From the sequence record PP328843.1: a stretch of DNA of 64,000 nucleotides; one strand, 5' to 3'. The position numbers and the translations under genes are program-made. Shown here piece after piece: positions 44,977 through 57,241 of this stretch. This stretch comes from Escherichia phage 215Ecol030PP. The notes below the pieces were generated by a model, which was given only the letters and a program-made list of their open reading frames with translations, was not told the DNA's origin and made no database searches. Numbering within the stretch: position 1 is the stretch's first letter; every line of letters starts with the position of its first letter.

Positions 44977-47900
44977 ATGGCCGAGATTAAAAGAAAGTTC
45001 AGAGCAGAAGATGGTCTGGACGCAGGTGGCGATAAAATAATCAACGTAGCTTTAGCTGATCGTACCGTAGGAACTGACGGTGTTAACGTTGATTACTTAA
45101 TTCAAGAAAACACAGTTCAACAATATGATCCAACTCGTGGATATTTAAAAGATTTTGTAATCATTTATAATAATCGTTTTTGGGCAGCAACGGATGATAT
45201 TCCAAAACCTGCTGGAAATTTTAATAGAATTCGTTGGAAAGCATTACGTACTGATGCTGTATATACAACCGTATCATCTGGACCATATCAATTAAAATCC
45301 GGAGAAGCAATTTCAGTAGATACATCAGTTGGCAATGACATTGAGTTTACTTTACCACCTTCTCCGCTTGATGGAGAAACCGTAATAATTCAAGATATCG
45401 GTGGAAAACCTGGCATAAATCAGGTTAAAATAAATTCTTCAAATCAGAGTATTGTCAATTTTAGAGGTGAACAGGTACGTTCAGTTTTAATGACTCATCC
45501 AAAGTCACAGATGGTATTCATTTTTAATAATCGTTTGTGGCAAATGTATGTTGCTGATTATAGCAGAGAAGCTGCGATTGTTACTCCATCGACTGCATAT
45601 CAAGCACAATCTAATGATTTTATCGTGCGTAGATTTACTTCCGCTGCGCCGATTAATGTTAAGCTTCCAAGATTTGCTAATCATGGCGATATTATTAATT
45701 TCGTCGATTTAGATAAATTAAATCCACTTTATCATACAATTGTCACGACATATGATGAAACGACGTCAGTGCAAGAAGTTGGAACTCATTCCATTGAAGG
45801 CCGTACAACGATTGACGGTTTCTTGATGTTTGATGATAATGAGAAATTGTGGAGATTGTTTGACGGGGATAGTAAAGCGCGTTTACGCATTATAACGACT
45901 AATTCTAATATTCGTCCAAATGAAGAAGTTATGGTATTTGGTGCGAATAATGGAACAGCTCAGACAATTGAACTTCAGCTTCCGACTGATATTTCTGTTG
46001 GTGATACTGTTAAAATTTCCATGAATTACATGAGAAAAGGACAAACAGTTAAAATCAAAGCTGCCGGTGAAGATAAAATTGCTTCTTCAGTTCAATTGCT
46101 GCAATTCCCAAAACGTTCAGAATATCCGCCTGAAGCTGAATGGGTTACAGTTCAAGAATTAGTTTTTAACGGTGAAACTAATTATGTTCCAGTTTTGGAG
46201 CTTGCTTATATTGAAGATTCTGATGGAAAATATTGGGTTGTACAGCAAAACGTTCCAACTGTAGAAAGAGTAGACTCTTTAAATGCTTCTACTAGAGCAA
46301 GATTAGGCGTAATTGCTTTAGCTACGCAAGCTCAAGCAAATGCTGATTTAGAAAATTCTCCACAAAAAGAATTGGCAATTACTCCAGAAACGTTAGCTAA
46401 TCGTACTGCTACTGAAACTCGCAGAGGTATTGCAAGAATAGCAACTACTGCTCAAGTGAATCAGAACACCACATTCTCTTTTGCAGATGACCTTATCATC
46501 ACTCCTAAAAAGCTGAATGAAAGAACTGCTACAGAAACTCGTAGAGGTGTCGCTGAAATTGCTACGCAGCAGGAAACTAATACAGGTACTGATGATACTA
46601 CAATCATTACTCCTAAAAAGCTTCAAGCTCGTCAAGGTTCTGAGTCATTATCTGGTATTGTAACTTTTGTATCTACTGCAGGTGCTACTCCAGCTTCTAG
46701 CCGTGAATTAAATGGTACGAATGTTTATAATAAAAACACTAATAATTTAGTTGTTTCACCTAAAGCTTTGGATCAGTATAAAGCTACTCCAACACAACAA
46801 GGTGCGGTAATTTTAGCAGTTGAAAGTGAAGTAATTGCTGGACAAAGCCAAGAAGGATGGGCAAATGCGGTTGTAACGCCAGAAACGTTACATAAAAAGA
46901 CATCAACTGATGGAAGAATTGGTTTAATTGAAATTGCTACGCAAAGTGAAGTTAATACAGGAACTGATTATACTCGTGCAGTCACTCCTAAAACTTTAAA
47001 TGACCGTAAAGCAACTGAAAGTTTAAGTGGTATAGCTGAAATTGCTACGCAAGTTGAATTCGACGCAGGCGTCGACGATACTCGTATCTCTACACCATTA
47101 AAAATTAAAACTAGATTTAATAGTACTGATCGTACTTCTGTTGTTGCTCTATCTGGATTAGTTGAATCAGGAACTCTCTGGGACCATTATACCCTTAATA
47201 TTCTTGAAGCAAATGAGACACAGCGTGGTACACTTCGTGTAGCTACACAAGTTGAAGCTGCTGCAGGAAAATTAGATAATGTTTTAATAACTCCTAAAAA
47301 GCTTTTAGGTACTAAATCTACTGAAGCACAAGAAGGTGTTATTAAAGTTGCAACTCGGTCTGAAACTGTAGCTGGAACGTCAGCAAATACTGCTGTATCT
47401 CCAAAAAATTTAAAATGGATTGTGCAGAGTGAACCTACTTGGGCAGCTACTACTGCGATAAGAGGTTTTGTTAAAACTTCATCTGGTTCAATTACGTTCG
47501 TTGGTAATGATACGGTAGGTTCAACACAGCCATTAGAATCATATGAGAAAAATGGTTATGCAGTATCACCATATGAATTAAATCGCGTATTAGCAAATTA
47601 TTTGCCATTAAAAGCAAAAGCTGTAGATAGTAATTTATTAGATGGTCTAGATTCGCTCCAGTTCATTCGTAGGGACATTGCACAGACGGTTAATGGTTCA
47701 CTAACCTTAACCCAACAAACGAATCTGAGTGCCCCTCTTGTATCATCTAGTACTGCTACATTCGGTGGATCAGTTTCAGCAAATAGTACATTAACTATTT
47801 CTAATACTGGAACGGCAACTCGTCTGATTTTTGAGAAAGGACCTCAAACTGGAACAAACCCGACTCAAACGATGACTGTCAGAGTGTGGGGAAATCAATT

Positions 47901-48846
47901 TAGTGGGGAATCAGACACAACACGTTCTACCGTATTTGAAGTTAGTGATGAAACGTCTAGTCATTTTTATTCTCAGCGTAATAAAGCTGGTAATATAACA
48001 TTTAATATAAACGGTACAGTAACGCCGATAAATGTGAATGCTTCAGGAACATTGAATGCGAATGGCGTTGCAACATTCGGTAGTTCAGTTACTGCTAATG
48101 GCGAATTTATCAGTAAATCATCGAATGCTTTTAGAGCAATAAACGGTGATTATGGATTCTTTATTCGTAATGATGGTGCTAACACCTATTTTATGCTTAC
48201 TGCATCTGGCGATCAGACCGGTGGATTTAATGGATTACGTCCTTTAACTATTAATAATGCATCTGGTCAAGTAACGATTGGTGAAAGCTTAATCATTGCC
48301 AAAGGTGCTACTATAAGTTCAGGTGGTTTAACTGTTAACTCGAGAATTCGTTCTCAGGGTACTAAAACCTCTGATTTATATACCCGTGCGCCAACATCTG
48401 ATACTGTAGGATTCTGGTCAATCGATATTAATGATTCAGCCACTTATAACCAGTTCCCGGGTTATTTTAAGATGGTTGAAAAAACTAATGAAGTGACTGG
48501 GCTTCCATACTTAGAACGTGGCGAAGAAGTTAAATCTCCTGGTACATTGACTCAGTTTGGTAACACGCTTGATTCACTTTACCAAGATTGGATTACTTAT
48601 CCAACGACTCCAGAAGCACGTACCACTCGCTGGACACGTACATGGCAGAAAACCAAAAACTCTTGGTCAAGTTTTGTTCAGGTATTTGACGGAGGTAACC
48701 CTCCTCAACCTTCAGATATAGGAGCGATCCCATCTGATAATGGAATAATAGGTAATCTTACTATTCGCGATTTCTTGCGAATTGGTAATGTTCGCATTAT
48801 TCCTGACCCAGTGAATAAAACTGTTAAATTTGAGTGGATTGAATAA
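44977..48846 (+). CDS. 34: Long tail fibre proximal subunit gp34
   Basis: 1289 aa; T4 gp34 length; internal repeated ...TPKKL... motifs. Confidence 0.93.
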   Translation: MAEIKRKFRAEDGLDAGGDKIINVALADRTVGTDGVNVDYLIQENTVQQYDPTRGYLKDFVIIYNNRFWAATDDIPKPAGNFNRIRWKALRTDAVYTTVSSGPYQLKSGEAISVDTSVGNDIEFTLPPSPLDGETVIIQDIGGKPGINQVKINSSNQSIVNFRGEQVRSVLMTHPKSQMVFIFNNRLWQMYVADYSREAAIVTPSTAYQAQSNDFIVRRFTSAAPINVKLPRFANHGDIINFVDLDKLNPLYHTIVTTYDETTSVQEVGTHSIEGRTTIDGFLMFDDNEKLWRLFDGDSKARLRIITTNSNIRPNEEVMVFGANNGTAQTIELQLPTDISVGDTVKISMNYMRKGQTVKIKAAGEDKIASSVQLLQFPKRSEYPPEAEWVTVQELVFNGETNYVPVLELAYIEDSDGKYWVVQQNVPTVERVDSLNASTRARLGVIALATQAQANADLENSPQKELAITPETLANRTATETRRGIARIATTAQVNQNTTFSFADDLIITPKKLNERTATETRRGVAEIATQQETNTGTDDTTIITPKKLQARQGSESLSGIVTFVSTAGATPASSRELNGTNVYNKNTNNLVVSPKALDQYKATPTQQGAVILAVESEVIAGQSQEGWANAVVTPETLHKKTSTDGRIGLIEIATQSEVNTGTDYTRAVTPKTLNDRKATESLSGIAEIATQVEFDAGVDDTRISTPLKIKTRFNSTDRTSVVALSGLVESGTLWDHYTLNILEANETQRGTLRVATQVEAAAGKLDNVLITPKKLLGTKSTEAQEGVIKVATRSETVAGTSANTAVSPKNLKWIVQSEPTWAATTAIRGFVKTSSGSITFVGNDTVGSTQPLESYEKNGYAVSPYELNRVLANYLPLKAKAVDSNLLDGLDSLQFIRRDIAQTVNGSLTLTQQTNLSAPLVSSSTATFGGSVSANSTLTISNTGTATRLIFEKGPQTGTNPTQTMTVRVWGNQFSGESDTTRSTVFEVSDETSSHFYSQRNKAGNITFNINGTVTPINVNASGTLNANGVATFGSSVTANGEFISKSSNAFRAINGDYGFFIRNDGANTYFMLTASGDQTGGFNGLRPLTINNASGQVTIGESLIIAKGATISSGGLTVNSRIRSQGTKTSDLYTRAPTSDTVGFWSIDINDSATYNQFPGYFKMVEKTNEVTGLPYLERGEEVKSPGTLTQFGNTLDSLYQDWITYPTTPEARTTRWTRTWQKTKNSWSSFVQVFDGGNPPQPSDIGAIPSDNGIIGNLTIRDFLRIGNVRIIPDPVNKTVKFEWIE

Positions 48847-48854
48847 GAGGTATT

Positions 48855-49970
48855 ATGGAAAAATTTATGGCAGAGTTTGGACAAGGATATGTCCAAACGC
48901 CATTTTTATCGGAAAGTAATTCAGTAAGATACAAAATAAGTATAGCGGGTTCTTGCCCGCTTTCTACAGCAGGACCATATGTTAAATTTCAGGATAACCC
49001 TGTCGGAAATCAAACATTTAGCGCAGGTCTTCATTTAAGAGTTTTTGACCCTTCAACAGGAGCATTAGTTGATAGTAAGTCATATGCTTTTTCTACTTCA
49101 AATAATACTACATCAGCTGCTTTTGTTAGTTTCATGAATTCTTTGTCAAACAATAGACTTGTTGCTATACTAACTAGCGGAAAGGTTAATTTTCCTCCTG
49201 AAGTGGTATCTTGGTTAAGGGGAGCAGGAACTTCAGTTTTTCCATCAGATTCAGTATTGTCAAGATTTGACGTATCATATGCTGCTTTTTATACTTCTTC
49301 TAAAAGAGCTATTGCATTAGAGCATGTTAAACTAAGTAATAGAAAAAGCACAGATGATTATCAAACTATTTTAGATGTTGTATTTGATAGTTTAGAAGAC
49401 GTCGGAGCTACGGGATTTCCTAAAAGAACATATGAAAGTGTCGAGCAATTTATGTCAGCGGTTGGTGGAACTAATAACGAAATTGCGCGATTGCCAACTT
49501 CAGCTGCTATAAGTAAACTTTCTGACTATAATTTAATTCCTGGTGATGTTCTTTATCTTAAAGCACAGTTATATGCTGATGCTGATTTACTTGATCTTGG
49601 AACTACAAACATATCCATTCGTTTTTATGATGCATCAAATGGATATATTTCCTCGACCCAAGCTGAGTTTACTGGGCAAGCTGGGTCTTGGGAATTAAAA
49701 GAAGACTATGTAGTTGTTCCAGAAAACGCCGTAGGATTTACGATATATGCACAAAGAACTGCTCAAGCAGGTCAAGGCGGCATGAGAAATTTAAGTTTTT
49801 CTGAAGTATCAAGAAATGGCGGCATTTCAAAACCTGCCGAATTTGGCGTCAACGGTATTCGCGTTAATTATGTCTGTGAATCGGCTTCACCTCCAGATAT
49901 AATGGTACTTCCTACACAAGCCTCTTCTAAAACTGGCAAAGTGTTTGGACAGGAATTTAGAGAAGTTTAA
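48855..49970 (+). CDS. 35: Long tail fibre hinge protein gp35
   Basis: 371 aa; T4 gp35 length and position. Confidence 0.88.
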   Translation: MEKFMAEFGQGYVQTPFLSESNSVRYKISIAGSCPLSTAGPYVKFQDNPVGNQTFSAGLHLRVFDPSTGALVDSKSYAFSTSNNTTSAAFVSFMNSLSNNRLVAILTSGKVNFPPEVVSWLRGAGTSVFPSDSVLSRFDVSYAAFYTSSKRAIALEHVKLSNRKSTDDYQTILDVVFDSLEDVGATGFPKRTYESVEQFMSAVGGTNNEIARLPTSAAISKLSDYNLIPGDVLYLKAQLYADADLLDLGTTNISIRFYDASNGYISSTQAEFTGQAGSWELKEDYVVVPENAVGFTIYAQRTAQAGQGGMRNLSFSEVSRNGGISKPAEFGVNGIRVNYVCESASPPDIMVLPTQASSKTGKVFGQEFREV

Positions 49971-50032: not shown

Positions 50033-50683
50033 ATGGCTGATTTAAAAGTAGGTTCAACTGTGGGTGGATCTGTCATTTGGCATCAAGGAAATTTTCCATT
50101 GAATTCAGCCGGTGACGATGTACTCTACAAATCATTTAAAATATATTCAGAATATAATAAACCGCAGGCAGCTGATAACGATTTCGTTTCTAAAGCTAAT
50201 GGTGGTACTTACACCGGTCCAATTACTATTAATTACGGGGTAAATAGTTATCTTCAATTAAGTAATAATGAAACCCCCATCCGAATTCGTTCTGGTGGCG
50301 GCACTGGTAATACTCTTGTAGTTGGTGGCTCTTCTGGCGGTATTAGTTTTAGACCAGCAGGTAGTGAAATCACTACTGGACAAATTACGATTACGCCAGA
50401 AGGTTTGACAACATTTACCAAAGCTGTAACGGCTCCATCTGTAACTGTTACATCTACTCCTTCCGCAGCATCTGATGTTACTCGTAAAGATTATGTTGAT
50501 GGAGCAATAAATACTGTTACAGCAAATGCAAACTCTAGGGTATTACGCTCTGGAGACACTATGACAGGAAATTTAACTGCGCCAAACCTTTTTTCACAGA
50601 ATCCTGCATCTCAACCTTCACACGTTCCACGATTTGACCAAATCGTAATGAAGGATTCTGTTCAAGATTTCGGCTATTATTAA
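50033..50683 (+). CDS. 36: Long tail fibre distal connector gp36
   Basis: 216 aa; position between 35 and 37. Confidence 0.85.
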
Positions 50684-50691
50684 GAGGACTT

Positions 50692-53637
50692 ATGGCTACT
50701 TTAAAACAAATACAATTTAAAAGAAGCAAAACTGCAGGTCAACGTCCTGCTGCTTCAGTATTAGCCGAAGGTGAATTGGCTATAAACTTAAAAGATAAAA
50801 CAATTTTCACAAAAGATGACTCAGGTAGTGTTATAGAATTAGGTTTAAAATATGGAGGAACTATAAATGGGTCTTTAGAGGTTACAGAAAATATAACTGG
50901 AACTTTAATTGGAAATTCTAGCACAGCTACTAAATTGCAAACACCTAGGAAAATTAATGGTATATCTTTTGATGGGTCAAAGGACATTACCTTAACTCCA
51001 TCTGACATAAATGTCAATAGCACAACATTTATAAAAAATAATGGCGAATTACCTGTTGATGCTAATTTAGATACGTATGGGCCTGTTGAAGAATATCTTG
51101 GAGTTTGGTCGAAAGCAACTTCAACCAACGCTCAACCAGCAAATAAATTTCCAGAAGAAAATGCTGTAGGTGTGCTAGAAGTATTTGTGGCCGGTCAATT
51201 TGCTGGTACTCAGAGATATACAACTAGATACGGAAATGTTTATATTCGTTCCTTGACTGCTACATGGAACGGAGTAAATGGTCCGTGGAGTGTGTGGCGA
51301 AATATTCAATCCGGTACTCGTCCACTGTCAACAACAATTGATCTTAATGATCTAGGAGGCGCTGAACACCTTGGTTTGTGGCGAAATAGTTCAAATTCCA
51401 TTGCTACCTTTGACAGAAATTTCCCAGAAGAGGGGTCGTCAGCTCAAGGTCTTTTGGAAGTATATGAAGGTGGAAACTATTCTCGTACACAAAGATATAC
51501 AACCAGATTTGGTGTTGTATATACTCGTTGTCTTGCTGCCGCGTGGGATGCTTCCGCGCCTAAATGGGGACCGTGGCAACAAGTCGGTAATGTCACACCA
51601 GCGACTTTCTATGACGGAAACCTGAATGATTTTAAAACTCCTGGGTTATATAACATTTTAGGCACTGATGCCGTTATTAACTGTCCTACTGGTGAAGGTT
51701 TACCAGCCGTTATTGTTGGTTTGCTGGAAGTTAAACAGCGTGCTTCTGGTGGTGCTATTTTCCAAAAATTTACTACTGCCGGAACAGGTGCAACTACCCG
51801 CGATCGTATTTTTGAGCGCGCATATACCGGCGGTGTGTGGGGTGAATGGAACGAAGTATACACATCCTATTCTCTACCAATTACTTTGGGTATGGGCGGT
51901 ATTAAATCTAACTTAGCTGAGTTAGACTGGCAAACCTTTGATTTTGTCCCTGGTAGTATGTTTAGTGTTCCTTTGAACAAAATAAAGAACATGCCAGCTA
52001 ATATGAATTGGGGCACGATTGACGGAAACTTAATTATGTTTTCTGTTGGTCCTAGCGAACATACTAGCACAGGGCGTACTGTTCAGGTTTGGCGCGGTAC
52101 TGTATCCCAGACAAACTACCGTTATTTTGTCGTTCGTGTGTTCGGTAATTCTGGAAATAGAACTTGCACAGTCCGCCGTGTTGTTCTTGAAGACGGATCA
52201 CATACTTGGACTGCTCAACAAAACTTTAGGGGATTGCTGAATATCACTGCTGCTGTTAATCTTGGTGCTAATCAGAAAATTTCACTTGCTCCAGGAGCAT
52301 ATATTCAAGCCCCTGCTAGCGGTTCTGGTTCTAATACTTACGCAAATCAGAATACTACCATTGCACCATTATATCAGGCCATTGACGATTCAAATAAAAA
52401 CCAGTTTGCACCAATTGTTAAACAGAAAAACACTGTAAGTAATATCACCTTTGCCACTGGTATGGCTATAGGTACATCCGAATATAAGATCATTGCTCAG
52501 GGTGATTTATCCGCTAATGGAACAGCAGATGGGTTAAAACAATGGACTTTCATGCCGTCAGGTTATTTTAAATCTCCAGGGCGTGTATATGTCGGTGATG
52601 CGTTCCTTAATACAGATGGTAATATTGCCGGTTCAATCTGGAAGAAATATAACAATGCGACAAATTTAGATGCTGCCTTGAATACTCGCGTAGGTAAAGG
52701 CGGTGATACGATGACAGGTCGGTTAACAATCAATGCACCTAATGATTCTATTGTATTATCAACAACTGCTAGTAATTCTTTGCATATTCGCGGTGACATA
52801 GACGGGACTGGTAACTGGTATATTGGCAAGGGTGGTGCTGATAATTCGCTAGCATTTTATAGCTATGCTTCTCAGGCGGCAGTACATATCACAAACAATG
52901 GTGAGATTGCGTTAAACCCGCAAAATACCGCAATGGTTAACGTTAACCGCGACCGTGTACACATTAACGGTTCTGGATGGATTGCTAGACAACCGGGTGA
53001 TTGGGGCAACCAATGGCGAGTAGAAGCTCCATTATTCGTCGATCATGGTTATGTTTCACAGGATTGTTATTATCCTATTCTTAAAGCAAGAAGCGTTATA
53101 ACCAATCAAGGATATAGCACCTCTGTTGACTTTGGTATGCGTCGTACTCCATCACAGTGGGGGCAAGCAATCATTCGTGTCGGATCCACGGAGGCTTCTC
53201 CTGATGCTGGACACCCACAAGCTGTGTTTGCATTCCATCATGATGGATTCTTTTATACACCAGGAAATGGTAGCTTTAGCGATGTGTATATTCGTTCTGA
53301 TGGTCGTCTTAAGATTAATAAAAAAGAGCTAGAAAACGGAGCGGTCGAAAAAGTTTGCCGACTGAAAGTTTATATTTACGATAAAGTTAAGTCTATTAAA
53401 GACCGTAGTGTTATTAAACGTGAAGTTGGTATTATTGCTCAGGATCTTGAAAAGGAATTACCGGAAGCTGTATCTAAAGTTGAAGTTGATGGATCTGATG
53501 TTCTGACAATTTCTAACTCTGCTGTGAATGCTCTTTTAATTAAAGCTATTCAGGAAATGAGTGAGGAAATTAAAGAATTGAAAACGCCTCTCTTTACTAA
53601 AATTGCTCGCAAAATTAGTAAATATTTTAAATTCTAA
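50692..53637 (+). CDS. 37: Long tail fibre distal subunit gp37 with C-terminal intramolecular chaperone (self-cleaving) domain
   Basis: 981 aa; N-terminus conserved with gp37; C-terminal roughly 115 aa contain SDGRLK..N..E...[13 protein letters not shown], typical of peptidase S74 intramolecular chaperone domains. Confidence 0.88.
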
Positions 53638-53643
53638 CAACAA

Positions 53644-53658
53644 GGGGGAAATGCCCCC
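53644..53658 (+). terminator. Hairpin GGGGG-AAATG-CCCCC after gene 37
   Basis: Inverted repeat followed by TTTGG; weak T-run. Confidence 0.4.
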
Positions 53659-53673
53659 TTTGGAGTATAAATT

Positions 53674-54471
53674 ATGGCAGTAGTTGGAGTTCCTGGCTGG
53701 ATTGGAAGTTCAGCCGTAAATGAAACAGGACAGCGCTGGATGAGTCAAGCGGCTGGTCAATTAAGATTGGGTGTTCCTTGCTGGATGAGTCAATTTGCAG
53801 GTCGCTCACGAGAAATTATTCACACGCTTGGAGCAGACCATAACTTCAATGGTCAATGGTTCCGAGATAGATGTTTTGAGGCAGGTAATGCACCTATAGT
53901 GTTTAATATTACAGGTGATTTAGTATCATATTCTAAAGATGTTCCTTTATTCTTCATGTACGGAGATACACCAAATGAATATGTTCAGTTAAATATTATT
54001 GGCGCTCATATGTGGGGTAGAGGTGGACAAGGTGGATGGACTCATTCCGGTGGAGATGGTAATGGACAACAAGGCGGGCATTGTATTCAAAACGACATTG
54101 GTGGACGATTAAGAATTAACAACGGTGGAGTAATTTGCGGTGGAGGTGGCGGTGGTGGCGGTATCGCTTATCGTCCTCACTCTGGCGCAAACTGGCAGGA
54201 TATTGGTGGCGGTGGAGGAAGACCATTTGGCCCAGGAGGTGGCGGTGGTTATTCAGGAGGTGCTGCTTCTTATGACGGCCCAGGAGGTGGTTATAATTAT
54301 GGTAATGCTCATTCTGGTCAGGGCGGTGATGCCGGAGGAAATGGACAAAATGCCTGGTCTGATGGCGGTAAAGTACTAAAAGTCGGTGCAGGAGGAGCAG
54401 CAGGTTATGCTGTCATAGGATCTGCTCCAACTTGGCAAAATGTTGGAGTAATATATGGTCCAAGAGTATAA
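53674..54471 (+). CDS. 38: gp38 receptor-binding adhesin, T2-type (glycine-rich motifs)
   Basis: 265 aa; multiple poly-Gly runs (GGGGGGGG, GGGGG, GGGGG) separating short variable segments. Confidence 0.85.
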
Positions 54472-54502: not shown

Positions 54503-55159
54503 ATGGCAGCACCTAGAATATCATTTTCGCCCTCTGATATTCTATTTGGTGTTCTAGATCGCTTGTTCAAAGATAACGCTACCGGGAAAGTTCTTGCTTC
54601 CCGGGTAGCTGTCGTAATTCTTTTGTTTATGATGGCGATTGTTTGGTATAGGGGAGATAGTTTCTTTGAGTACTATAAGCAATCAAAGTATGAAACATAC
54701 AGTGAAATTATTGAAAAGGAAAGAAATGCACGCTTTGAATCTGTCGCCCTGGAACAACTCCAGATAGTTCACATATCATCTGAGGCAGACTTTAGTGCGG
54801 TGTATTCTTTCCGCCCTAAAAACTTAAACTATTTTGTTGATATTATAGCATATGAAGGAAAATTACCTTCAACAATAAGTGAAAAATCACTTGGAGGATA
54901 TCCTGTTGATAAAACTATGGATGAATATACAGTTCATTTAAATGGACGTCATTATTATTCCGACTCAAAATTTGCTTTTTTACCAACTAAAAAGCCTACT
55001 CCCGAAATAAACTACATGTACAGTTGTCCATATTTTAATTTGGATAATATCTATGCTGGAACGATAACCATGTACTGGTATAGAAATGATCATATAAGTA
55101 ATGACCGCCTTGAATCAATATGTGCTCAGGCGGCCAGAATATTAGGAAGGGCTAAATAA
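54503..55159 (+). CDS. t: Holin T
   Basis: 218 aa; single N-terminal TM segment and large periplasmic domain; recognised as the T4 t holin. Confidence 0.92.
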   Translation: MAAPRISFSPSDILFGVLDRLFKDNATGKVLASRVAVVILLFMMAIVWYRGDSFFEYYKQSKYETYSEIIEKERNARFESVALEQLQIVHISSEADFSAVYSFRPKNLNYFVDIIAYEGKLPSTISEKSLGGYPVDKTMDEYTVHLNGRHYYSDSKFAFLPTKKPTPEINYMYSCPYFNLDNIYAGTITMYWYRNDHISNDRLESICAQAARILGRAK

Positions 55160-55432
55160 TTATTTGTTCGTATACATTTCTAGATATCGATATACACCCT
55201 CAAAACCCTCGTTGAATTCATCGATGAGGGTTTTCTTATCTTCTTGAGTTAATTCAGAAACAATTTTACGAAATGAATTCTGATTTAACTTTCTACCTTC
55301 ATGCGTTACTCCAATCTCATTAAGAAATGCAATAAAATTAGCACGATTCTCAACAATATCTTCTCTGGAAAATTTAATCAAAATAGATGCAACAGTAATA
55401 ATTTCACGAACTGTATCAATGTTTTTATTCAT
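55160..55432 (-). CDS. asiA: AsiA anti-sigma70 factor
   Basis: 90 aa; recognised as T4 AsiA. Confidence 0.92.
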   Translation of the reverse strand: MNKNIDTVREIITVASILIKFSREDIVENRANFIAFLNEIGVTHEGRKLNQNSFRKIVSELTQEDKKTLIDEFNEGFEGVYRYLEMYTNK

Positions 55433-55463
55433 TAACTATACCACTCAATTAGTTGACTTTGTT

Positions 55464-55493
55464 ATAATATCATCAGACGCTTGATTTGTAAAC
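55464..55493 (-). promoter_or_regulatory. T4-type early promoter (GTTTAC, 18 nt, TATTAT) for asiA
   Basis: Minus-strand consensus hexamers about 30 nt upstream of asiA. Confidence 0.55.
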
Positions 55494-55593
55494 TGGTCTG
55501 TGTTATTTTCTTCAAAAATTTTTTCTACGAATTCCTTGAACGACTCGCGTTCCTGAGCTACATTATGCTCGATTACCTTTTCAAGATTATGAC

Positions 55594-55872
55594 TCATTCG
55601 AAATAATCTTCAATTTCGTAATCATGGACATAAATCATTATAGTTTCTAATACATCATCAATACTTTTTCCTGGAGCTGGAATTACGTAAAAATATCCTG
55701 CTTTTGAGAGGTCTTTATAAGTTCCAATCAAGAAATCATTATTCTCAAGATGTAACTCTTCAACTAATTCATTGACAATTGAATGGTATAGGTTTGGTAG
55801 AAACTTATATAGCTTTTCTAGAATATCAATTTTGATTGTGTATTGAACCACGGACTGAGAATCAATAATCAT
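55594..55872 (-). CDS. arn: Arn anti-restriction (McrBC inhibitor) protein
   Basis: 92-aa acidic protein adjacent to asiA as in T4. Confidence 0.7.
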   Translation of the reverse strand: MIIDSQSVVQYTIKIDILEKLYKFLPNLYHSIVNELVEELHLENNDFLIGTYKDLSKAGYFYVIPAPGKSIDDVLETIMIYVHDYEIEDYFE

Positions 55873-55949
55873 AGACCTTCCCCTTATGTTTCTGTTTGCG
55901 ATTAGATTCTTTAAACGCTTTCTTCTTATCCTTATGGACAGAAGCTTTA

Positions 55950-56174
55950 TTAAAATTGTGTTTTGCGACTAAATTGTTCATAGTGCTGAATTACCTCTCT
56001 CAAACACTTGCATGTGAATGAAAACTTTTTAGCTACACCACATTCAAATATATGTTCTCTTAAATCACGTGTGTCAGTATATCCCATCTCAACAATAAAA
56101 TGTCTTATTAGATTTTTATCTTTATCATTGAGAGAATTAAAATAATCGGATTTTGAATTAATTTCCCTGGCCAA
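55950..56174 (-). CDS. Hypothetical protein (arn.1 position)
   Basis: 74-aa ORF. Confidence 0.45.
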   Translation of the reverse strand: MAREINSKSDYFNSLNDKDKNLIRHFIVEMGYTDTRDLREHIFECGVAKKFSFTCKCLREVIQHYEQFSRKTQF

Positions 56175-56454
56175 ATTGAATCACCTTCAGTTGACGTTTT
56201 AGTTCTTTTATCATTTCTTCGTTCATCGCAATATAAAGATCACGTAAAGCAGGTTTTAGCATTCCATTTACCGGAGAACTAAATGGACATACATAATCTT
56301 TTCCTACGAGCTTTTTAGTGAATTCCATATTACAGAACTGAAATGCCGGTTCATTGGCATAAATTCCCCAATTAGTTGACATCATTTTATTGGCATATTC
56401 CAACGCCTGGATTTGATTCTTAATTCCATCAATTTGAAACTTTTTAATATTCAT
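56158..56454 (-). CDS. Hypothetical protein (arn.2 position)
   Basis: 98-aa ORF. Confidence 0.5.
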   Translation of the reverse strand: MNIKKFQIDGIKNQIQALEYANKMMSTNWGIYANEPAFQFCNMEFTKKLVGKDYVCPFSSPVNGMLKPALRDLYIAMNEEMIKELKRQLKVIQFGQGN

Positions 56455-56915
56455 TAGTAAAGGTCCTCAGAGTAAAGTTCTTTTTCACTACCACCGCGTT
56501 CAATACGTACTTGTCCGGCGTAAGTTGCAATAATCATTGCTTCTTCACGTGTCCAGTAATTGCTATACTGATCAATAAACCCTTGGTCATCATCACAAAC
56601 TTGCTGAGTAACTAATTGGGGTTTAACTACATCTAAAACTTCTGCCATATCTTTAGAATAATGACGAGCACCTGGAATAACAAGAGTTCGTCCATCTTTT
56701 AATTTAAAACGATTAGCTGCACAGACAATTCGTCGTTGATACTTTTGGTTTTCATCCCAATACGCAGTCTGCCAACAAATTTCAGGAACTTCTTTCAGAA
56801 TATCTTCTTCTGTGCATTTATAACCATGCGCTTTAAATTTTTCAACAAGACTTTCTGGAGTTTCACGAGATAAAGGAACATTCAGCATTTTTAAACGATT
56901 AATAAATGGGTTCAT
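56454..56915 (-). CDS. Hypothetical protein (arn.3 position)
   Basis: 153-aa ORF. Confidence 0.5.
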
Positions 56916-57241
56916 TTAAACCATCCTTTAATACGTTGCCACAAAGTTTTCTGCTGAGCTTTGTTAACACCAATTGAACGAATAACTGGTTGAGATTCCT
57001 GAAATTCTTTATAATCAGCAAGGTAAATTTCGTAAGCTGCATCCGTAAATGAACTTATCGCTGCCATAAAATTATTGCGAATACCTACTGGAGCATCTTT
57101 ACTTTCACGAATAATCATGTATTTACCAGTCTTAATCTTTACGATAGTTCCAAGATAAGCTCCATGGTACCAGATGTCCCAACCCTCTTGAGTAGGTTCT
57201 ACACAACGACGAAGTTCATTGACAATTTCTAACTTGTTCAT
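56912..57241 (-). CDS. Hypothetical protein (arn.4 position)
   Basis: 109-aa ORF. Confidence 0.5.

Follow-up and report, generated by a model that had tools for sequence, protein, structure and literature searches.

What forms the distal end of the long tail fibre of Escherichia phage 215Ecol030PP, how would that end mature, and which receptor on the host surface is it likely to recognize? The stretch of DNA analysed here, 64,000 nucleotides of the record PP328843.1 and hereafter called the window, is a Tequatrovirus stretch that carries an ordinary T-even long tail fibre tip composed of gp37 and gp38, and the answer is sought in these two proteins and their relatives.

Organization of the tail fibre tip module

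A sequence-only reading of the window had placed gp37 and gp38 side by side, and both are present there as intact open reading frames, bounded downstream by the holin gene:

50692..53637, + strand: gene 37, long tail fibre distal subunit (open reading frame, 981 aa, 106.7 kDa precursor)
53674..54471, + strand: gene 38, tail-fibre tip adhesin (open reading frame, 265 aa, 26.9 kDa)
54503..55159, + strand: gene t (holin), downstream boundary of the module (Pfam Phage_holin_T, E 1.9e-117)

By exact-sequence look-up, gp37 is identical to WWT42814.1 and gp38 to WWT42815.1 ('receptor-recognizing protein'), both from Escherichia phage 215Ecol030PP, and a literature search by the name of this phage found nothing. 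The gene order gp34-gp35-gp36-gp37-gp38-t is shared with RB32, T6, T2 and S16, in each of which the gp38 gene likewise lies directly 3' of gene 37 and 5' of the holin gene t. Taken as a whole, the locus is very probably an adhesin-capped T-even distal tip module of the kind found in T2, T6, K3, RB32 and S16. The gp37/gp38 tip has been well described before and nothing in the present instance is new; folding by an intramolecular chaperone (IMC), self-cleavage and polyglycine-sandwich capping are textbook knowledge or recently published for close relatives, and the importance of the locus beyond annotation is slight. The label 'T2-type' given in the sequence-only reading suits the architecture but not the sequence, which is T6/RB32-like: the gp37 C-terminus is 95% identical to that of T6 and gp38 is 97% identical to that of RB32, whereas the corresponding values for T2 are only 40% and 47%.

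The gp37 subunit and its C-terminal chaperone domain

Gp37 matches PHROG 1699 ('long tail fiber protein distal subunit', E 1.5e-200) and is a mosaic, with residues 1-524 being 97% identical to fPS-90 and residues 676-981 being 86% identical to T6. The gp37 of RB32 shares the SD-R-LK motif of the IMC but departs from this pattern, with 86% identity over residues 1-524 and only 40% over residues 674-981. Self-BLAST of gp37 detected no internal repeats at E < 0.01. Three features are found in the protein's C-terminal part:

52765..52917, + strand: gp37 trimerisation region, aa 692-742 (Pfam PF20744 gp37_trimer, marginal match)
53281..53295, + strand: 'DVYIR' strand, aa 864-868, predicted C-terminus of mature gp37 and gp38 docking face (motif identity to fPS phages)
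53296..53634, + strand: intramolecular chaperone / Peptidase_S74 domain, aa 869-981, 113 aa, 12.8 kDa (PF13884)

The first of these, upstream of the IMC domain, is marginal in that its score of 22.3 bits (E 1.4e-4) barely exceeds the cutoff of 21.7. The IMC domain itself sits at the extreme C-terminus, where it makes up the last 113 residues of the distal half-fibre subunit. A chaperone of roughly 115 residues had been proposed near residues 865-981 from the sequence, and this proposal is upheld by a profile match to PF13884 (Peptidase_S74) at residues 869-927 (E 4.4e-10, 40.1 bits vs a gathering cutoff of 22), by homology to the S16 construct 6F45_A and by the AF2 fold, the distance from Ser869 to the end of gp37 being 113 residues. 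The motif SDGRLK begins at residue 869 (nt 53296) and the motif [13 protein letters not shown] at residue 915 (nt 53434). The start given in the earlier reading, nt 53290, is gp37 codon 867.

Ser869 (nt 53296-53298) and Lys874 (nt 53311-53313) are the predicted catalytic residues, forming a dyad that is intact within SDGRLK and whose spacing (S+5) equals that of S911/K916 in endoNF and S587/K592 in MyRF, where the Ser-Lys dyad is indispensable for cleavage (PMC8326128). Together with Asp870 and Arg872, these two residues are invariant in alignments of seven T-even gp37 tails and 20 database homologues. The predicted scissile bond, Arg868^Ser869, falls between nt 53295 and 53296 in the sequence DVYIR^SDGRLKI, which is letter-for-letter identical to the site whose cleavage has already been predicted for the IMC of the fPS Yersinia phages by alignment to DLNVS^SDRRIKK of S16 (PMC7917993).

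Structural comparison points in the same direction. A search with the last 181 residues of gp37 returned 21 database matches, mostly fragments and all bearing PF13884, so the alignment behind the structure prediction is shallow. The AF2 model displays an alpha-beta-beta-alpha-beta-beta arrangement followed by a 37-residue C-terminal helix; its confidence is moderate (mean pLDDT 63, with 73-83 in the IMC core) and it describes a monomer, though the domain acts as a trimer, while the beta-helical tip part (fragment residues 1-26 and 59-72; pLDDT < 50) was disregarded. The best PDB neighbours of the model found by Foldseek are all IMC/ICA domains, namely 7DC3 (E 9e-5, probability 1.00), 3GUD (0.99), 3GW6 (0.93) and 4UW8. 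The endoNF chaperone (3GW6) and the MyRF ICA (7DC3) belong to Peptidase_S74 and have the same Ser-x4-Lys dyad, alpha/beta core and long C-terminal helix, but each is attached to an unrelated passenger protein, a tailspike sialidase in the one case and a eukaryotic transcription factor in the other, and sequence identity in the structural alignments is only 8-20%. Because 6F45_A was not among the Foldseek results for the model, the link to the S16 tip/IMC construct is one of sequence, in which the two C-termini are homologous with the S-D-x-R-x-K motif in register.

Of the 113 residues of the tail, the PF13884 profile reaches no further than the first 59, as might be the case if the domain were a degenerate and uncleaved remnant, with gp37 remaining at full length and gp38 binding in some other way or transiently. 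Such a reading is very improbable given that neither the catalytic Ser and Lys nor the D/R residues around them vary and that the predicted fold retains the full IMC topology, the C-terminal helix included. Moreover, the last 181 residues of gp37 are 95% identical to those of T6, with the same degree of conservation across the 113-residue tail itself, and the gp37 proteins of T6 and T2 reportedly undergo C-terminal proteolytic processing before gp38 caps them (PMC3157838). In S16, where the last 113 residues of gp37 are autocleaved, the docking surface for gp38 is exposed only once the IMC has been removed (PMC7917993).

These homologues instead suggest autocatalytic cleavage at the site given above. 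Gp37 would first be synthesised as a precursor of 981 residues in which Ser869-Phe981, as a member of the Peptidase_S74 family, would act as an intramolecular chaperone, trimerising via its long C-terminal helix and nucleating the folding of the upstream beta-helical shaft. After trimerisation, the Ser869/Lys874 dyad would cut between Arg868 and Ser869, freeing a fragment of 12.8 kDa and leaving a flat trimeric gp37 tip that ends in ...DVYIR. A single gp38 would dock on this tip via its N-terminal domain (aa 1-46, W9/W22/W37), and at the distal end of gp38 a polyglycine-II sandwich would bear hypervariable loops that bind an outer-membrane protein.

Gp38 as the tip adhesin

The description of gp38 as a glycine-run adhesin of 265 residues has proved apt, in that the protein is a member of PF05268/PF21721 and has solved homologues in the adhesins of PP01 and S16. 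Gp38_N (PF21721) matches residues 1-42 over the whole profile (positions 1-40/40, E 2.9e-20) and GP38 (PF05268) matches residues 47-265, again over the whole profile (positions 1-218/218, E 4.4e-66). Further matches are to PHROG 2056 ('tail fiber protein; host specificity', E 7e-112) and, in the PDB, to 9V85 (PP01 gp38 receptor-binding domain, E 3.5e-73) and 6F45_D (S16 gp38, E 1.9e-50). Two regions of the protein are of particular concern:

53674..53811, + strand: gp38 N-terminal attachment domain, aa 1-46, W9/W22/W37 (Gp38_N match)
54010..54387, + strand: gp38 glycine-rich motifs and hypervariable loops, aa 113-238, predicted polyglycine-II (PGII) sandwich (alignment to 9V85 and 6F45_D)

All three attachment-domain tryptophans are retained without exception in the window, RB32, PYPS2T, FL08, T6, FL20, T2, S16, fPS-2 and fPS-90; in S16 gp38 they are the prongs that fit into pockets on the gp37 tip (PMC6851490). 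Glycine accounts for 26% of gp38 overall and is concentrated in residues 109-265 (37%, vs 11% in residues 1-108); the protein has the runs G156-163, G178-182 and G188-192 along with twelve shorter GG/GGG motifs. The alignments show no change in the glycine columns, whereas the segments between them drop to 39-49% identity across receptor classes, and residues 113-238 align to the PGII sandwich of both 9V85 and 6F45_D.

The closest solved structure by sequence is that of PP01 gp38 (9V85; PMC12892980), which is near-identical in its beta-helix region and glycine motifs but differs in loops A-E and targets OmpC of E. coli O157. The S16 tip (6F45; Dunne et al. 2018) offers the likeness for the assembly as a whole, comprising a trimeric gp37 beta-helix, a 113-residue IMC that is autocleaved in S16, and one gp38 made up of an attachment domain bearing three tryptophans, a beta-helix and a polyglycine sandwich. 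By analogy with this structure, one gp38 would be expected per gp37 trimer (3:1) in the present phage as well. S16 is nonetheless a distant relative, a member of the genus Gelderlandvirus with a Salmonella host, whose gp38 is 45% and gp37 tail 26% identical, whose cleavage site reads DLNVS^S rather than DVYIR^S, and whose loops differ.

A T4-like role, in which gp38 would serve only as an assembly chaperone absent from the virion and receptor recognition would reside in gp37, could be read from the position of gene 38, which is that of T4 gene 38, and from the label 'distal long tail fiber assembly catalyst' carried by some homologue records, such as that of T6. This role is extremely improbable for the present protein, which is over its full length a PF05268/PF21721 adhesin homologous to crystallised virion-tip adhesins, whereas T4 gp38 has, by published account, a very different sequence (PMC6851490). 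The present gp37 also ends in a removable IMC and not in a receptor-binding needle of the T4 type, and a swap of the RB32 hypervariable segment carries receptor specificity along with it (PMC3157838). Gp38 is accordingly treated below as the adhesin.

Receptor specificity

The loops of gp38 determine the primary receptor in this family (PMC3157838, PMC12032242), and closely related gp38 proteins share a receptor (Lutz et al.). The variable segments, which the sequence-only reading had singled out for comparison with adhesins of known receptor, were aligned and found to be 96-98% identical to those of the OmpA users RB32 and FL08. Over residues 113-238, identity is 98% to RB32 (123/126), 97% to PYPS2T and 96% to FL08 (121/126), compared with 49% to T6, 46% to FL20, 44% to S16 and 39% to T2, so that adhesins using Tsx, FadL/OmpF or OmpC, and those of the second OmpA type, all fall at 39-49%. 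Judged by sequence, the loop set is that of the RB32/FL08 'OmpA type 1' (Lutz et al. 2025), equivalently the RB32 group (Trojet et al. 2011).

RB32/RB33 (Tequatrovirus; Trojet et al. 2011, PMC3157838) are thus the nearest relatives of the adhesin with a known receptor, the 97% overall identity of gp38 to RB32 leaving nine substitutions or indels, of which three lie in the loop region. RB32 needs OmpA and is sensitive to LPS composition, and chimeras mapped this OmpA and LPS specificity to a hypervariable (HVS) segment of 400 bp (PMC3157838); FL08 is OmpA-dependent as judged from deletion mutants of MG1655 (PMC12032242). The near-identity of the loop region to these two OmpA-using phages, as opposed to 39-49% for the others, makes OmpA the probable receptor. 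From these homologues we infer that gp38 would bind OmpA, which is most likely its primary receptor, with some dependence on the LPS core. T6 provides an instructive counterpart: its gp38 attachment domain is 98% identical and it has the intercistronic hairpin in common, in addition to the gp37 C-terminus and gene order already noted, but its loops are only 49% identical and its receptor is Tsx.

The same architecture could in principle serve another receptor, be it OmpF, Tsx, OmpC, FadL, LPS alone or a Yersinia protein, were the loop substitutions sufficient to redirect it. The loops differ from RB32 by N173K, G222A and S229H and from FL08 by P168V, Q175K, D201V, G202A and N208Q, and slight alterations of the hypervariable segments have been documented to change which receptor members of this family use (PMC3157838). 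Single loop substitutions can shift specificity, and one phage that is a single residue away from T2 in each of two hypervariable segments uses other receptors (PMC3157838). In addition, the PYPS2T phage, the adhesin of which is 98% identical to gp38, was isolated on Yersinia pseudotuberculosis. Even so, a receptor other than OmpA is unlikely. At positions 168, 175, 201, 202 and 208 gp38 carries the residue of RB32, and at 173, 222 and 229 that of FL08, such that each differing residue occurs in one or the other of two OmpA-tested adhesins and the loops hold none that is foreign to an OmpA context. Adhesins with other receptors are far more distant in the loop region, and the finding of Lutz et al. 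on close gp38 relatives weighs in the same direction. OmpF was also considered as a candidate because of the identity of the gp37 cleavage motif to that of the fPS phages, and was rejected since the gp38 loops of fPS-2 and fPS-90, which use OmpF and LPS, differ (71-73% identity overall).

With OmpA retained as the most likely receptor, the statement in the sequence-only reading that the gp38 loops set the host range stands for the primary receptor but goes too far for host range as a whole, as phages of the PYps2T group, to which the 98%-identical PYPS2T adhesin belongs, displayed no clear link of gp38 subgroup to host range (PMC8762354). The isolation of PYPS2T on Yersinia suggests that the phage in the window may have a host spectrum extending beyond E. 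coli. A related and rather doubtful possibility, though somewhat less so than a change of receptor, is that the combination of RB32-type residues (P168, Q175, D201, G202 and N208) with those of FL08/PYPS2T type (N173, G222, S229 and an IIGA-H segment at 109-112) may confer a host spectrum that is distinct at the level of OmpA alleles or spans genera (E. coli/Shigella/Yersinia), unlike that of either parent type. If true, this would represent natural fine-tuning through the shuffling of loop residues inside one receptor class.

Should OmpA be the receptor, resistance would be expected to arise via mutations in ompA or in the LPS core, a matter of relevance to phage therapy and host-range engineering. 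The specificity of phage 215Ecol030PP may likewise be reprogrammable by swapping the 400-bp hypervariable segment of gene 38, for which RB5 x RB32 is a precedent.

The region between genes 37 and 38

The short interval that separates the two genes contains one feature of its own:

53644..53658, + strand: stem-loop GGGGG-AAATG-CCCCC between genes 37 and 38 (sequence inspection, terminator-like scan)

A sigma-70 scan for a separate gene 38 promoter gave no more sites than shuffled sequence, and a TATAAAT just 5' of the gp38 ATG lies too near the start codon to serve gp38. On its 3' side, the stem-loop is followed by TTT and then by the Shine-Dalgarno sequence of gp38, GGAG (53662-53665). The G/C stem is kept at the same position in RB32, PYPS2T, T6, FL08, T2 and fPS-2, with loops that differ among them.

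Organization of the tail-fibre operon

The tail-fibre region on the + strand of the window is a canonical T-even long-tail-fibre operon, with a gp34-gp35-gp36-gp37-gp38-t order that is also annotated in phages RB32, T6, T2 and S16:

44977-48846, + strand, gp34 (1289 aa)
48855-49970, + strand, gp35 (371 aa)
50033-50683, + strand, gp36 (216 aa)
50692-53637, + strand, gp37 (981 aa)
53674-54471, + strand, gp38 (265 aa)
54503-55159, + strand, holin t (218 aa)

Exact-sequence look-ups returned WWT42814.1 ('long tail fiber protein') for gp37 and WWT42815.1 ('receptor-recognizing protein') for gp38, each from Escherichia phage 215Ecol030PP, so the locus has already been deposited, with correct names. 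The tip module formed by these two proteins is real and was rightly interpreted in the sequence-only reading, and it is known in every respect: it belongs to a textbook family with two crystal structures, its exact cleavage motif has appeared in print, a receptor has been assigned to its loop set by experiment, and both proteins are themselves in GenBank. The description of the module as T2-type holds for its architecture but not for its sequence, as T2 is only 47% identical in gp38 and 40% in the gp37 tail; by sequence, the gp37 tip, the intramolecular chaperone (IMC) and the gp38 attachment domain resemble those of T6, whereas the gp38 loops resemble those of RB32.

Small ORFs on the minus strand occupy the stretch downstream of holin t (55160-57241) and are apparently syntenic with asiA (55160-55432), asiA.1, arn, arn.2, arn.3 and arn.4 of RB32 and T6.

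The C-terminal chaperone of gp37

The span given for the tip feature starts at 53290, codon 867 of gp37, and the two motifs on which a self-cleaving chaperone had been proposed are both in place, SDGRLK from residue 869 (nt 53296) and a second motif of 13 residues from residue 915. The Pfam Peptidase_S74 profile ('Chaperone of endosialidase', PF13884) matches residues 869-927 with 40.1 bits (E 4.4e-10) against a gathering score of 22. S869, D870, R872 and K874 are invariant in seven aligned T-even gp37 tails, among which the T6 tail is 95% identical to that of the window, and in 20 database homologues, all bearing PF13884. The spacing of the predicted catalytic Ser and Lys is the same as in the S911/K916 dyad of endoNF and the S587/K592 dyad of MyRF, without which self-cleavage is impossible (PMC8326128). 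Among solved structures, sequence search returned only the S16 gp37 tip construct (6F45_A) as a significant match, with SDGRLK opposite S16 SDRRIK and the remaining tail aligned up to the C-terminal helix. AlphaFold2 modelled residues 801-981 poorly in the beta-helical tip and reasonably in the chaperone core (pLDDT 73-83), where the order helix-strand-strand-helix-strand-strand precedes a C-terminal helix of 37 residues. When this chaperone model was compared with the PDB by Foldseek, the top matches were all IMC domains, namely MyRF ICA (7DC3; E 9e-5, probability 1.00), GA-1 gp12 (3GUD), endoNF (3GW6) and the T5 L-shaped fibre (4UW8), with unrelated noise below them. Given these profile, homologue and fold matches, the C-terminal domain of gp37 is an S74 IMC, as had been proposed.

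S16 gp37 loses its last 113 residues by autocleavage at DLNVS^SDRRIKK (Salem et al., PMC7917993), and the stretch from Ser869 to the C-terminus of the window gp37 is likewise 113 residues. The site predicted by the same authors for the Yersinia fPS phages, DVYIR^SDGRLKI (PMC7917993), is present letter for letter, and we infer that gp37 is cut between Arg868 and Ser869. For T2 and T6, C-terminal proteolysis of gp37, after which gp38 caps the fibre, has been reported (Trojet et al. 2011; PMC3157838). Based on computed masses, this cut would reduce gp37 from 106.7 to 93.9 kDa and set free a 12.8-kDa fragment.

Over its full length, gp37 is a mosaic and forms a single-member cluster at 90% identity. 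Over residues 1-524 it shares 97% identity with fPS-90 of Yersinia and 86-87% with T6/RB32. For residues ~525-675, BLAST found nothing in T6, RB32 or fPS-90, and the only alignments, of lower identity, are with PYPS2T, fPS-2 and FL08. The remainder (676-981) shares 86% identity with T6 and 81% with fPS-90.

Architecture of the gp38 adhesin

The assignment of gp38 as a receptor-binding adhesin is borne out by end-to-end matches to Pfam GP38 (E 4.4e-66; aa 47-265 on profile positions 1-218 of 218) and Gp38_N (E 2.9e-20; aa 1-42), by a PHROG match (2056, 'tail fiber protein; host specificity'), and by homology to two proteins with crystal structures, the receptor-binding domain of PP01 gp38 (9V85, E 3.5e-73) and S16 gp38 (6F45_D, E 1.9e-50). 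S16 gp38 docks onto the gp37 trimer through three tryptophans (PMC6851490), which correspond to W9, W22 and W37 here and are invariant in 10/10 aligned adhesins. Glycine makes up 37% of residues 109-265 compared to 11% of residues 1-108, with runs at 156-163, 178-182 and 188-192 and many GG motifs; among aligned relatives the glycine columns are invariant and the intervening segments variable. This is exactly the published architecture of glycine-rich motifs and hypervariable segments.

Between 53750 and 54500, GC content rises from a background of ~0.35 to 0.46-0.50 and GC skew reaches +0.30 to +0.37, and this stretch maps to the half of gene 38 that codes for glycine-rich sequence (GGN codons). 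Both shifts arise from the glycine composition of gp38 and are a compositional effect of the protein and no sign of foreign DNA.

Receptor specificity

Comparison of the variable segments with adhesins of known receptor places the window gp38 closest to those of the OmpA users RB32 and FL08, while the loops of the OmpF users fPS-2 and fPS-90 clearly differ.

Identity to the window gp38 in the attachment domain (aa 1-46) and loop region (aa 113-238)
Phage (receptor): attachment; loops
RB32 (OmpA + LPS): 100%; 98%
PYPS2T: 98%; 97%
FL08 (OmpA type 1): 59%; 96%
T6 (Tsx): 98%; 49%
FL20 (OmpA type 2): 98%; 46%
T2 (FadL/OmpF): 65%; 39%
S16 (OmpC): 55%; 44%

RB32 requires OmpA and its infection is affected by LPS composition, and RB5 x RB32 chimeras traced specificity to a 400-bp segment with four hypervariable segments (Trojet et al. 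2011; PMC3157838). Deletion of ompA in MG1655 abolishes infectivity of FL08 and AV119, and closely related gp38 proteins were concluded to use the same receptor (PMC12032242). Within the loop region, RB32 differs by N173K, G222A and S229H (window residue first) and FL08 by P168V, Q175K, D201V, G202A and N208Q; wherever it departs from one of these two OmpA-tested adhesins, the window agrees with the other. Taken with the receptor data for RB32 and FL08, this loop identity makes OmpA, with some LPS dependence, the best prediction and quite probably the receptor, and the particular mix of loop residues may shift the OmpA-allele or cross-genus spectrum. The proposal that the gp38 loops determine host range holds for the primary receptor, which these loops set, but host range does not depend on them alone: gp38 subgroup and host range showed no clear link in the PYps2T phage group (PMC8762354).

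Related loci and the intercistronic hairpin

The FL08 locus (L002 140-4292, compared with 53092-54471 of the window) carries an adhesin body and loops 96-100% identical from aa 47 on, an S16-like attachment domain (MAVTG--PWVGSS..., 59% identical), and an S16-like gp37 tip and IMC (25-36% identical). Attachment domain and gp37 tip therefore vary together, with a recombination boundary near gp38 residue 46.

A 303-aa chimeric protein, P0034, is encoded in an E. coli assembly (GCA_031535085.1, contig ABMKHH010000064.1; L010 6001-6912). Its N-terminal ~156 aa, which comprise the attachment domain, the beta-helix and the first glycine motifs, come from a gp38 adhesin and run straight into a tip strand of gp37 type and an S74 chaperone (...NDVYIR^SDRRLKIN...). 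The fibre DNA is ~86% identical to Krischvirus/Tequatrovirus g37-g38. The chimeric gene follows, in the downstream direction, a 1140-aa fibre gene with an S74 domain of its own. The surroundings are not T4-like: upstream is an S78 protease-capsid fusion, and downstream is a protein weakly matching a T5 pb9 (distal tail protein) domain. Both records are probably of one sequencing run, so the fusion may be an assembly chimera.

Between the gp37 stop and the gp38 Shine-Dalgarno, a G/C-rich stem-loop (53644-53658, GGGGG-AAATG-CCCCC) is followed by TTT. A hairpin is kept at the same position in RB32, PYPS2T, T6, fPS-2, FL08 and T2 with differing loops, that of FL08 and T2 being C(TTCG)G, a classic stable tetraloop. 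It may act in mRNA stability, or in partial termination or attenuation between the two genes.
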